From Curvularia clavata (taxonomy: Eukaryota): DNA of 64,000 nucleotides. Within the stretch, counting starts at the first letter, position 1; every line of letters starts with the position of its first letter. Location of the stretch: assembly GCA_023920165.1 (NCBI GenBank), contig CP089280.1, positions 1,736,001-1,800,000 on the forward strand. Direction: 5' to 3'. The notes under the pieces were generated by a model. That model was not told the origin of the DNA. It did no database searches and saw nothing but the letters and a program-made list of their open reading frames with translations. A program made the position numbers and the translations under genes. Shown here piece after piece: positions 50,804-54,591 of this stretch.

Positions 50804-53800
50804 TTACTGGAGCAAATTATGCCCGAACCCTACATCAATCCTCCATTTGACGCAATTCCCCTCTAAGATACCGCCATGCTTGTTGTTCTCGCCCTTAGTG
50901 TCACATTTATCCACAATGTACTTAAACTGCCTGGCGCACTCGTAGAAATCAAAGTTTTTCCATAAGCAGCCTTCCTTGATTTGAACCCAGACATTGTATT
51001 CCATGTACACGGCGTCTTTGAGATAAGGGTTGGTCGAGTTCACGCGGAGCGTGTTCTTAGAAATGCCCGGTTCGAGGTCCGTCTCTTTGCGTACGGAGAG
51101 ACTGAAGTCGATGTCATTGCAAGTCTCATCAATGACCTTTACTAGCGAAGCACGGTTTCCCGGGTTGCCTTTGTTATAACAGCCTGGCTTGGGGTCCTTG
51201 GGGAAAACGGGAGGCTCTGCGCCAGGCTCAGGGACGTCAGGCTCACCCGAGTCATCTTGGTTGTCGTCTTCATGTTCTTCTTGCTTGATGTTACACTGCT
51301 CTGGCTCAGCCTCTTCCTCATCAGGAGTTTCCAAAGGGCCCTCCCAGAAATGCAATTGAATGTTGTTGGGAGAAGGGCTTTTTCTCACGGGACGCTTAGC
51401 AAGGCTGCCCCATAAAGCGTTGCCCAGGGAGCTTGACTCTGAGGTGGGACAGGAAAGTGCGGGGAAAGCACACTTCGAGACCGTTGGGCTTGGTACGCCA
51501 TTACGCACGTGCAGCGTTGGCATGTATGCCAGCTGATAGTCTCGAGGTGGGAAGTTGATTGTGGCTCCTGTCGGTTGGGTAGAGTAACTCTGCCCCAAAT
51601 CATCCGTCCAAGTACTTTGGGGCCAGGCTGTTGTCGTGCTTAGCTTGGGCTGGGATATAATTAGCAAAAAATGACTGTGAGAGTGATACAAGGGTGACTT
51701 GCCTTTGTTATTAGTTGAGCATATGTGGCAGCTCTTTTGTTGTTTACTTGGGCCTGACCGGTGGGAATAGCCATTGTGCTCAAGGCGTATTCGGTGACGG
51801 TAATGGGCGAGAATGCAAGAGTACTCTGAATGGAATCGGCCACAGTGATAGGTATGCGTGGGTAGTCGATTGTTGTCAAGGTTTCAGTGGGGAGTAGAGG
51901 GAGAACCAAAGTGCACGGGAAGAAGCACTGGACATTGGGTGTGGGCGTCTCCCAAATCTTTGGATCAATCCAGACAAGATTGTCATTGATGGTCGAGTTG
52001 GCATCACCTCCCCCGCCCACTGTGGCGTCGAAATCAATGGACCCTAAGGAGAGAATTGTTTAGTATGAGTCAGTAGATATCTCGAGCTTGATGGACTCAC
52101 AGATCATGATACCATCAAGGCAACGGTCGTTAGCACGAGTTGTTGGGTAAGGTTAGTATCCGATATCACAGCGATAACTGGTTAATCGAAAACATACAAG
52201 ACCTGCTTCATCGCATATGTTTCTTCGTCATCGTACCCAATCCAACTGTCTCCACCATACGTGAAGTACTTCACCATGGCCGTTTCGTTGAGAATTGGCG
52301 AAATATTCTTGTCTTCGATAAGCTGTCGGATTTCCTGATTCGACATCACGCCAGGCGAGTTGGTGCAAGCTCCCGGTGCACCGCCCTTGCCTGCCACAAA
52401 AGAGCAGCCTGGGTGTCCGCAACTAGGGTCAGTGAGCTTGCAGCTTCGTCCGTAGTATGCAATGCCCATATCTATATTGATGTCAGACGGCCGGTGAAAC
52501 AAAGCCAAGTTGCGCGACTCACTGATCTTCGAGGGGTCTACCCCATCGAACCATAGCGGCGTCAAGCCCTTGTCAATCTCAGTGATGTCAGTTTGTGGTC
52601 TCACAACTCTGTCATCGAAGATTAGCCATGCATGCAAGACGAATCATCTGCCTAGAATCAACGTACGAGCCAAGCGTTAATACACCCGTATCCCATGGCC
52701 CATGCAAATCGTATGACATGAAGCCCATGAAATCGACGTAATCCTGCATTTCAGCTGGCTTGAAGTCACGTAGATACCAATAGTCGGGTGCAAGCACAAT
52801 GCTAAGCCCATAGCGAGTACCAAATGCGGCTCTAATTTCCTTCATCAAAAGGACCAGGTTGTCGGTATCCTGAGGGCGACCGCCGCGTGTTGTCTCAGCC
52901 GGATACTGTGAAAAGCTATCAGTCCAGGTCCCAGAAAACTGGTGTATAAGTGTGTCTTACTTTCCAATCAATACCAGCCCCTTGAAAGCCGTAGGTATTC
53001 ATGAAGTTCATCAACGACTTGATGAATGCCGCTCGATTTGCTTTTGTAGAAACCATATCGCTAAAAGCTGTGCTAGTTGTGCTGTTGGGATTGGTGAATG
53101 ACCACTGTGAGCAGAACATAGTCAGAACAAGCCAGCTGGGTCAAAGAGTTTACAATCCAACGCGGTCGGTGGTTGTAAAGCATTCCAAGGGAGATCATGG
53201 TCGAGGTCGTTGTCGTTGAGTTGTTCCAAATCAGAGTCAAGAATTTCGGTGCCGTTGGCAAAGCGTACGACGATATCCGTTCCATTGACGTCCAAGATGA
53301 TGTTGTGATCATAGCCATAATCATTTAGATCTCGTTCGGTCAAGGTTGACGCAAAACCAGCCCGCTGTACGGCGGTCTATAATTATTGGGCGTAGTTAGC
53401 ATATGTGACCAGCCCATGTACCTGGGTACAGAAAATGGAAACCTACCAGATTTGCCGGAAAATCATCCTCAACGCTGCGCGCACCAATGATTTTCCGGTC
53501 ATCACCGACGTCGGTACCGGTAGTCGGGTTAAGGTCATAATTATAAAAACGAATTGCTGCTGCATAGCCGTCCTTTTTGTAGCTAAGCAATAAGGAGAAT
53601 TGAATGACTGAGTCTGGCTGCATCGGTGGGTGACTTTGAGGATCTCTTTGCCTCTCGTCTTTTATCTGCTTCTGGAGCCGAGTACGTAATGCTCCGTGAG
53701 AGGCTCCTTGCCTATAGCGCGGATTAGTAGGAATAGTTGTGATGAACCTTCAAGAGCCGGTACGTACCAATTCTGCTCAGATGTCGTAGATGTTCCGTCG

Positions 53801-54591
53801 CATTTGTACCCGATTGGTGCACAGTACATCAGACCTGGCTGTCCAGCACCTTCAGGAATCTGGGCAGCCACTGAAGACGTGAGTTACTAAGGGCCTTAGC
53901 TTTGCAAAGGTATTCAACATACCATCCCGCATGCCCACACCGCCTTCGACCCACGAAGCGGGTGGGAATTCATCGCATGAGTACATCCGACCTGAATGTT
54001 CTAGTAGCGCCCCACTAGACGATTTCCTTGCTTGGATTTCAAGATCGGCGCCAGGGTTTATTGTTTCAAGCCCAGTAAACGGCCATGGACCTGGCATAAC
54101 ATTGGGCTGATCTGGTTCAGGACATCGTCGGCCATTGTCCTTCCAGGATTGCGGACACATCATTCCTCTCATATGTAATTAGGGAATATGATTAGTACGC
54201 CATGTCCTAATGATGTTTGTGATAAGAACTTTACCTATGATCACTGTTGCTCTTCACTGTATTAGGTTGAGCATCTGTGCCTTGAGAATATGCTGCTCCT
54301 TTTGAAGCATATATGTCGTATGTGAAGATATTACGACCAGGTCTTGTTGTCCAGTCCCTAAGTTCAGGGTTTTTGAGCCAATTTCGAGCATTTTGGCAGA
54401 TGGCAGGCATCTTACAACAGTTGTACTCAAGATAGACGGGCTTCTGCGGTACCATAACAGGATGGCTTTGAAAAGAATTACCCGGCTGCGCGTCGCCAGT
54501 GAGGAACACCATCTATGAGGCTGTAGTGTTGGATGAACTGTGCCTGTGCTAAACACAGAAGCAAAAGAATAAAAAACAGCCTGATAGCCAT
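50804..54591 (-). pseudogene. Decaying multi-exon secreted gene: signal peptide + NucA/NucB-like nuclease domain + partial GH18 subgroup-C chitinase + linker + Cys-rich C-terminal domain
   Basis: ATG at 54591 gives signal MAIRLFFILLLLCLAQA. Nuclease-like exons: YNCCKMPAICQNA, CPEPDQP, YSCDEFPPASWVEGG, CAP...SEQNWQG.SH..L. GH18 exons: WSF...FSDMVS...RAAFIKSL...YGFQGAGIDWK|YP...MSYDLHGPWD...GIAYYGRS...WIGYDDEET...GIMIWSIDFD. Linker VWIDPKIW...CFFPCTLVLP; GC-AG intron near 51700; tip CYNKG...IVDKCDTKGENNKHGG...CVKWRID. Several inactivating lesions. Confidence 0.8.

Follow-up and report, generated by a model that had tools for sequence, protein, structure and literature searches.

Within a 64,000-nucleotide (nt) stretch of the Curvularia clavata genome (contig CP089280.1, positions 1,736,001 to 1,800,000; hereafter the window), whose DNA is of fungal type with short GT-AG introns, a multi-exon locus on the minus strand at 54591..50804 carries what is probably a decayed copy of a fusion gene for a nuclease and a chitinase. 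The locus begins with an ATG at 54591, from which a typical signal peptide is read, and closes with a cysteine-rich open reading frame (ORF) whose stop is the TAA at 50806-50804. A sequence-only reading of this DNA had proposed that a secreted NucA/NucB-like nuclease is here fused, in a single gene, to the N-terminal side of a killer-toxin-type chitinase of family GH18. The peptides quoted in its support are real, and all of them lie in consecutive minus-strand exons of the locus. Two relatives are used for comparison throughout: P0001, a 1483-amino-acid (aa) protein of Parastagonospora nodorum, and L001, a syntenic orthologue from a metagenome that has both upstream neighbours in common with the window. 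X3 denotes a sequencing run that gave independent DNA contigs. The hand-built exons fall into three blocks, with clean splicing inside each block and none between blocks; the features are as follows.

54478 to 54591, minus strand: signal-peptide ORF, ATG 54591, 37 codons, TAA 54480-54478; homologous to the N-termini of P0001 and L001.
54486 to 54494, minus strand: one-base length difference (frame shift) relative to L001, the same in the DNA contigs of run X3.
54235 to 54512, minus strand: exon, start of the NucB-like module (YLEYNCC...FTYD); frame open from 54512.
53923 to 54167, minus strand: exon with nuclease motif 1 (D-E pair), CPQSW...CPEPDQP...YSCDEFPPASWVEGG.
53768 to 53870, minus strand: exon with nuclease motif 2 (metal-binding Asn), YCAP...SEQNW.
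53447 to 53711, minus strand: exon, remainder of the N-terminal module (N-module), with ..GARS.. at the Kex2-type KR/RR position of most relatives.
53122 to 53376, minus strand: linker exon, whose frame closes at TGA 53124-53122.
53115 to 53208, minus strand: deletion scar, about 94 nt unalignable to L001, replacing about 1.2 kb (L001 about 7723-8958).
52101 to 53104, minus strand: GH18 remnant, exons 53104-52961, 52905-52667, 52608-52523, 52471-52198 and 52135-52101 (Pfam positions 75-317).
51703 to 52043, minus strand: end of GH18 (SIDFD) and conserved post-GH18 region (LVWIDPKIWE..CFFPC..), followed by a GC-AG intron.
51230 to 51649, minus strand: acidic and proline-rich linker.
50804 to 51229, minus strand: C-terminal cysteine-rich domain and stop 50806-50804, with a predicted alpha/beta sandwich fold of the Y3-lectin/KP4 type.

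When single-exon translations were searched against Pfam, the exon translation 53852-54178 matched PF14040 (DNase_NucA_NucB; E 4.7e-4, 21.1 bits), and three exons matched PF00704 (GH18; E 3.8e-9, 1.9e-10 and 3.6e-8), covering profile positions 75-317 only, of 317. Transcript contigs were taken from three runs of one study on another strain under the same species label, and are mostly 95-99% alike. They carry nine joints at intron positions and are thus derived from spliced RNA. Eight predicted introns are seen as spliced joints, some with ends slightly different from the prediction: 54170-54233, 53871-53922, about 53711-53767, 52609-52666, 52472-52522, 52136-52197 (with a CG end in the window), about 52043-52100, and the GC-AG intron 51650-51702 on the minus strand, for which spliced contigs are present in all three runs. 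The intron 53377-53446 is represented by just a 17-nt overhang in one contig, while another contig retains it. Contigs of all three runs are collinear, gapless and unspliced through 53104-53154; nothing is spliced out between the linker exon and the first exon of GH18. The spliced contigs are also collinear across the scar, and the transcript strain shares the internal deletion.

The window copy cannot encode the fusion: it has a frame shift, the frame is broken again at an internal deletion of about 1.2 kb, catalytic residues are changed and an acceptor is not AG. The nuclease module lies in the next frame relative to the signal-peptide ORF, a shift of one base; L001 reads straight through at about 54486-54494, where the window carries one extra base. 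Further on, TGA 53124-53122 closes the linker ORF, and the GH18 remnant follows TGA 53143-53141 and is read in a different frame. Hence, the sequence-only reading was right in that the nuclease runs into the GH18 exons on the same strand, but not in a single reading frame. The deleted segment encodes, in L001, more of the linker, a pair of CBM18 modules and the strands of GH18 as far as the exon ending ..AIGG, and of the intron lost at the scar the window keeps only the 3′ end with its acceptor. Residues 253-686 of P0001 have no counterpart in the window, and neither GH18 Pfam positions 1-74 nor CBM18 have a counterpart anywhere in it, such that no complete (beta/alpha)8 GH18 domain is found there when the deletion is mapped against L001. 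What remains of the GH18 catalytic motif reads QGAGIDWK (G..D.K), versus QGADIDWE (D..D.E) in P0001 and L001; a DxxDxDxE motif with its Glu is absent from the window, and the final residue is still Glu in the transcript strain. At the acceptor ahead of 52135, L001 has AG and the window CG; the acceptor that the transcript strain has before 54170 is not AG in the window, where an AG three bases on would keep the frame. In the linker near 51207-51210, the window is about 183 nt shorter than the transcript strain and about 255 nt shorter than L001.

Could the gene nonetheless be intact and encode the full fusion, the breaks reflecting assembly errors, unusual splicing or recoding? Both halves do form long open frames, the downstream introns are all still spliced, and the locus is transcribed. 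However, the X3 contigs, at a depth of about 117, show no indel relative to the window across 52263-54750, which includes both breaks; since there is no length difference, neither frame break can be put down to a fault in a single assembly. In addition, three transcript contigs run unspliced through 53104-53154, and the missing GH18 and CBM18 segments correspond to the very place where L001 is about 1.2 kb longer. An intact gene in the window is thus largely refuted already, and we regard it as highly improbable.

Relatives were sought to see the gene in its undamaged form. With the 81-aa nuclease exon as the query, 4 of 15 candidates passed; one is P0001, and two have PF12708/PF12218 domains. 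By Pfam and alignment, P0001 is arranged as a signal peptide, the N-module motifs, Chitin_bind_1, a full GH18 domain (E 7e-59) and the same C-terminus, and its N- and C-termini align with those of the window. A region search with the N-module of P0001 gave 13 matches among 842 candidates (proteins of 815-2596 aa), six of which carry PF00704 and seven PF12708, a domain of GH55 glucanases. By source name, the six GH18-type homologues come from Parastagonospora, Pleomassaria, Ascochyta, Periconia and Hypoxylon (two), and the seven PF12708-type homologues from Coniochaeta, Colletotrichum, Gaeumannomyces, Leptodontidium and others. The post-hydrolase region and the C-terminal cysteine-rich domain are common to the GH55 and GH18 types. 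Killer-toxin-like (subgroup C) chitinases are large proteins that have CBM18 and/or LysM ahead of GH18; CBM18 is present in the GH18-type orthologues scanned and deleted in the window, while LysM is absent from those orthologues. An exhaustive search with a 170-aa N-module yielded 154 representatives at E<=1e-3, of which 90 had E<=1e-10 and 26 E<=1e-30; among the 134 that were scanned, PF12708 was found in 10 and PF00704 in one, and many of the relatives from this search are just 200-600 aa long, most of them looking like cut gene models. By source names, the family spans at least Dothideomycetes, Sordariomycetes and Leotiomycetes.

L001 is arranged as a signal peptide, a NucB-like module, a KR site, two CBM18 modules, GH18 and the C-terminal domain, with no break found, and retains the D..D.E motif. 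Nine of its junctions were examined. Eight can be joined homologously through a GT/GC-AG intron that keeps the frame; for the one linking the AYYQ and GWN exons, the corresponding join is a judgement by eye and is not among the candidates listed. Since the fusion exists in intact homologues and in a syntenic orthologue, it was not created in the window by deletion. Judged by alignment with these relatives, the deletion is one that removed the middle of an already fused gene. Accordingly, the sequence-only reading's single-gene fusion of nuclease and GH18 holds for the intact homologues and L001, though the window copy is broken; homologues with both domains, which that reading had called for, do exist (P0001, the 6 of 13 long homologues, and L001); and the scenario it had named as fatal, in which separate genes are joined here by a deletion, is not what the relatives show, as they and L001 are already fused.

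Two members of the collection deserve separate mention. P0158 (Ascochyta lentis, 893 aa) has the N-module and the last third of GH18 only (profile positions 216-317), reflecting either parallel decay or a faulty gene model. P0089 (904 aa) is repetitive, with 12 matched stretches and unrelated Pfam matches, and is probably a false positive of the family search.

The N-module is supported as NucA/NucB-like by its motifs, a weak Pfam match and a modelled fold. The window has ..SCDEFP.. and ..SEQNWQG.., keeping both the acidic pair of motif 1 and the Asn of motif 2. Of 165 family proteins, 148 have motif 1 in the form C[DE]E[FWY]P, the variable acidic residue being D in 127 and E in 21, and 79 have motif 2, with N in 43 and D in 36. 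For Bacillus NucB, a secreted non-specific DNase acting on extracellular DNA, D93, E94 and N117 are each described as essential (PMC5758888). The correspondence of the family motifs to these three residues is taken from the Pfam alignment range rather than from a superposition. PF14040 matches 52 of the 134 scanned representatives at E<=1e-3, and 17 of the 134 reach its gathering cut-off of 23.8; homologues fall on both sides of that value (P0002 at 25.7, P0003 at 22.4). Because most members score below the cut-off, the family is almost invisible to routine annotation. An AlphaFold model of the N-module of homologue P0035, built on a 65-sequence alignment, has a mean per-residue confidence (pLDDT) of 86.4 and a predicted template-modelling score of 0.83. 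Its single match at Z>=2 among 48,161 representative chains is Bacillus licheniformis NucB (6ejs_A), with Z 9.4, a root-mean-square deviation of 3.1 Å, 109 of 109 residues aligned and 19% identity. Like the family, Bacillus NucB/NucA (PF14040; PDB 5OMT/6EJS) is secreted and has the D-E pair within C-D-E-aromatic-P, a later Asn/Asp motif and this fold; by comparison, the fungal module is about 250 aa long with large insertions and several extra cysteines, and is fused to wall hydrolases. Of 64 members, 53 have a dibasic [KR]R at a distance of 50-95 aa behind motif 2, versus 153 of 475 control windows; the Kex2-type position is KR in L001 and a single Arg in the window. The architecture and nuclease fold of the family are well supported; its nuclease activity and Kex2 cleavage are inferences, as would be any toxicity or target.

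Four homologues (P0072, P0111, P0122 and P0134) form a subgroup with CDEFPFA(S/T)T.QGG as motif 1, a form that we take to be closer to the bacterial NucB one; they have no second Pfam domain and reach lengths of up to 986 aa.

Given that the frame of the N-module is open with both catalytic motifs intact, and that the locus is transcribed and spliced, the window could instead hold a shortened gene, namely a stand-alone NucB-like nuclease ending at 53124-53122, with the chitinase remnant serving as a long spliced 3′ untranslated region, at least in strains without the 5′ shift. The many relatives of 200-600 aa would fit this, their appearance as cut gene models aside. On the other hand, the signal peptide is out of frame in the window and X3, with the 37-codon upstream ORF preceding the module, and the dibasic site is degenerate in the window. 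Moreover, a stop codon far upstream of many exon junctions, as here, normally invites nonsense-mediated decay. A shortened functional gene therefore appears quite unlikely to us.

At the other end of the locus, a model of the window's last 141 residues, made with 14 homologues, has a pLDDT of 87.1. Its top Foldseek match is the Coprinus glycan-binding protein Y3 (E 4e-3, probability 1.0), and an exhaustive aligner gave Z scores of 9.4 for Y3, 7.8 for Gnk2, 7.6 for LDL lectin, 7.3 for DUF26, 6.8 for Zt-KP4 and 5.0 for KP4. Since Y3, Gnk2 and LDL as well as KP4 all match the model, the fold is one common to lectins and KP4 toxins. PF18647 (fungal lectin) matches weakly and below the cut-off (E 0.058 for the last exon of the window, 0.009-0.033 for two homologues), and an Atlas search with the domain gave leads only, at 0.76-0.78, to GBD_Y3 and Fungal_lectin_2; the same search with the post-GH18 region gave no usable match. 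Differing from the Y3/LDL lectins, Gnk2/DUF26 and KP4 toxins, the domain belongs here to a protein of more than 1000 aa. On the strength of the model, it may be a glycan-binding tail rather than a second payload, although a KP4-like activity is conceivable. The earlier proposal of payloads at both ends is accordingly doubtful, the match to Y3/LDL/Gnk2 lectins being stronger than that to KP4. Hce2 was also considered for this domain, but neither the pieces of the window nor the 16 homologues scanned gave a Pfam match to it.

When the window is compared with L001, synonymous changes outnumber the others in the GH18 exons, as is usual. Within the species the pattern is different. Of the 34 listed differences that set the transcript strain apart from the window downstream of the break, 24 change the amino acid; the share expected under neutrality is 0.69-0.77. 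In the GH18 exons, the nonsynonymous to synonymous ratio is 10:3 within the species versus 32:69 for the window and L001 (Fisher p 0.004); the same comparison over the whole downstream block gives p 0.03. Several window residues also deviate at positions conserved in all relatives. The transcript strain, for its part, has its own 1-nt gap at 50960. Constraint at the window locus looks recently relaxed; the decay looks recent and different between strains, because the within-species substitutions are near neutral, the 50960 gap is strain-specific and both halves are still free of stops.

Taken together, these results make it very likely that the window locus derives from a conserved fungal nuclease-chitinase fusion gene and is a copy that decayed recently but continues to be transcribed and spliced. 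Several points weigh against this conclusion or parts of it. Both halves lack internal stops over 382 and 666 codons, and some residual function is therefore possible, e.g. as a nuclease on its own in strains that lack the 5′ shift. The stretch at about 54413-54501 is uncovered by transcript contigs, such that the 5′ frame shift is read in the window and X3 alone; the RNA label of the three runs is a guess, their transcript nature resting on the spliced joints. With respect to the selection test, 39 differences were classified (37 of 40 listed ones and 2 that were inferred), the test used the 34 in the downstream block, and 15 further differences were left out. As for the nuclease, the window's own PF14040 score is below the gathering cut-off (21.1 versus 23.8), the evidence for a NucB fold comes from the homologue P0035 and not from the window's own split module, and neither Foldseek against the PDB nor a sequence profile against PDB chains gave a match for the N-module. 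The domain search suggested by the sequence-only reading thus returned both families, with PF14040 short of its cut-off and GH18 partial. Finally, a literature search on NucB/DNase-chitinase killers, covering available texts and not supplements, turned up mentions in Debaryomyces hansenii and Pestalotiopsis only, both of them domain listings.

Immediately upstream of the locus, and divergent from the nuclease-chitinase gene, is a 182-aa ORF at 55037-55582 on the plus strand that matches no Pfam family. L001 and L002 have it in the corresponding position, again as one ORF (44% identity over 189 aa). It is a candidate partner for the adjoining gene, perhaps as inhibitor or immunity protein. It is followed by a multi-CBM18 gene at about 56180-57700 (plus strand) with a signal-peptide-like start; three ORF pieces match PF00187, one of them above the cut-off, and the gene is syntenic in L001 and L002 with 56-73% protein identity. 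An initial impression of LysM in this neighbour was unsupported by Pfam at E<=0.01. On its downstream side the locus is bordered by a gene for a DOT1 histone methyltransferase at 48833-50518 (minus strand; PF08123, E 7e-56). Other neighbours are of the housekeeping type: an F-box protein at 37796-39193 (plus strand), a RhoGAP protein at 40953-44357 (plus strand) and a zinc alcohol dehydrogenase at 58951-60141 (minus strand). No gamma-toxin or known immunity gene was identified beside the locus, gamma toxins being too divergent for the family libraries used.

A functional parallel is zymocin. In zymocin-like clusters, a chitinase alpha/beta subunit is accompanied by a gamma tRNase from a gene of its own and by an immunity gene (Heneghan et al., bioRxiv 10.1101/2024.10.25.620242). 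Like the family, zymocin is of fungal origin and pairs a large secreted chitinase bearing chitin-binding modules with a nuclease and Kex2-type processing, the latter being predicted in the family. In contrast to zymocin, the family nuclease is of the DNase type with a NucB fold and not an anticodon nuclease, it lies N-terminally in the same polypeptide, and no LysM was found. Papers on zymocin-like clusters in filamentous fungi deal with separate tRNase toxins and Hce2-fused chitinases and hold no mention of DNase, NucB or GH55. The Hce2-fused subgroup C-II chitinases resemble the family in being modular chitinases with an extra "effector" domain; the family's extras are instead NucB-like at the N-terminus and Y3-like at the C-terminus.

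Two earlier descriptions concern proteins of similar domain content. ORF2p of the Debaryomyces hansenii virus-like element pDH5A is described as a single secreted polypeptide with ChtBD1, GH18, a "fragment of DNase NucA/NucB" and Kex2 motifs, and its authors propose it, without a test, as a possible DNase killer toxin (PMC8472843). In that protein the DNase fragment follows the chitinase and a predicted membrane segment, and the gene resides on a yeast cytoplasmic linear plasmid; the family has its nuclease N-terminally and is nuclear, intron-bearing and found in filamentous ascomycetes, the two being compared here by description only. In the mycoparasite Pestalotiopsis kenyana, pkg2 is listed without interpretation as a GH55 protein with a DNase_NucA_NucB domain (PMC12590764); it is the same kind of fusion as our seven PF12708 homologues, i.e. 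the GH55 version and not the GH18 version. The architecture of a nuclease fused to a wall hydrolase is thus nearly undescribed in the literature.

How might the intact proteins act? Intact members would be made as one secreted precursor comprising a signal peptide, a NucB-like (beta-beta-alpha-metal) module of about 250 aa, a Kex2-type KR/RR site, a linker, CBM18, GH18, the post-GH18 region and a Y3-like cysteine-rich domain, and the sister proteins would place the same ends around a GH55-type glucanase. On its way out through the secretory pathway, the precursor would be cleaved at the dibasic site, and the CBM18 and GH18 domains, together with the lectin-like tail, would bind and open the fungal cell wall. 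The nuclease module might then degrade DNA inside the competitor cell, as a single-chain analogue of zymocin, to which we give slightly less than an even chance. Alternatively, it might degrade wall-associated or released DNA outside cells, a course we consider comparably plausible. The window copy can take no part in either: the frame of its signal peptide does not fit that of the nuclease, CBM18 has been lost along with the initial third of GH18, the nuclease ORF is stopped, and the GH18 remnant is out of frame with altered catalytic residues.

The second course amounts to the N-module being an extracellular DNase that works beside wall hydrolases in nutrition, autolysis or the clearing of matrix DNA during mycoparasitism, and not a cell-killing payload. 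It accords with the action of Bacillus NucB on extracellular DNA (PMC5758888), with the GH18 and GH55 partners being wall-degrading enzymes, with the listing of a GH55 protein with this domain in a mycoparasite (PMC12590764), and with the fact that no uptake device was identified. What speaks against it, without being decisive, is that the same N- and C-terminal modules surround two unrelated wall hydrolases and that a processing site is conserved after the N-module; these shared end modules and the processing site therefore look like a delivery cassette, as in zymocin. An extracellular role is a serious contender, if somewhat short of an even bet. A fuller proposal sees the intact family as DNase killer toxins that deliver themselves, in the manner of a single-chain zymocin: a constant cassette, made up of an N-terminal NucB-like payload set free at the Kex2 site, the post-hydrolase region and the lectin-like tail, would be combined with exchangeable wall "keys" (GH18 or GH55), and the 182-aa cytosolic ORF would encode the inhibitor or immunity protein. 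This is doubtful as a whole, and we put it forward as a speculation. If it is true, the window captures an immunity gene that has been kept beside a toxin gene caught decaying.

For C. clavata, the window copy would be a natural example of gene loss, with an internal deletion first and then neutral drift that differs between strains. For the family, the meaning would be broader. Known fungal killer systems combine a chitinase with a separately encoded RNA-targeting toxin, and a DNase-type module on the same precursor would widen this picture. In the family, the module is coupled to one or the other of the two main wall hydrolases of fungi, and it would offer a testable candidate for a new antifungal mode of action.

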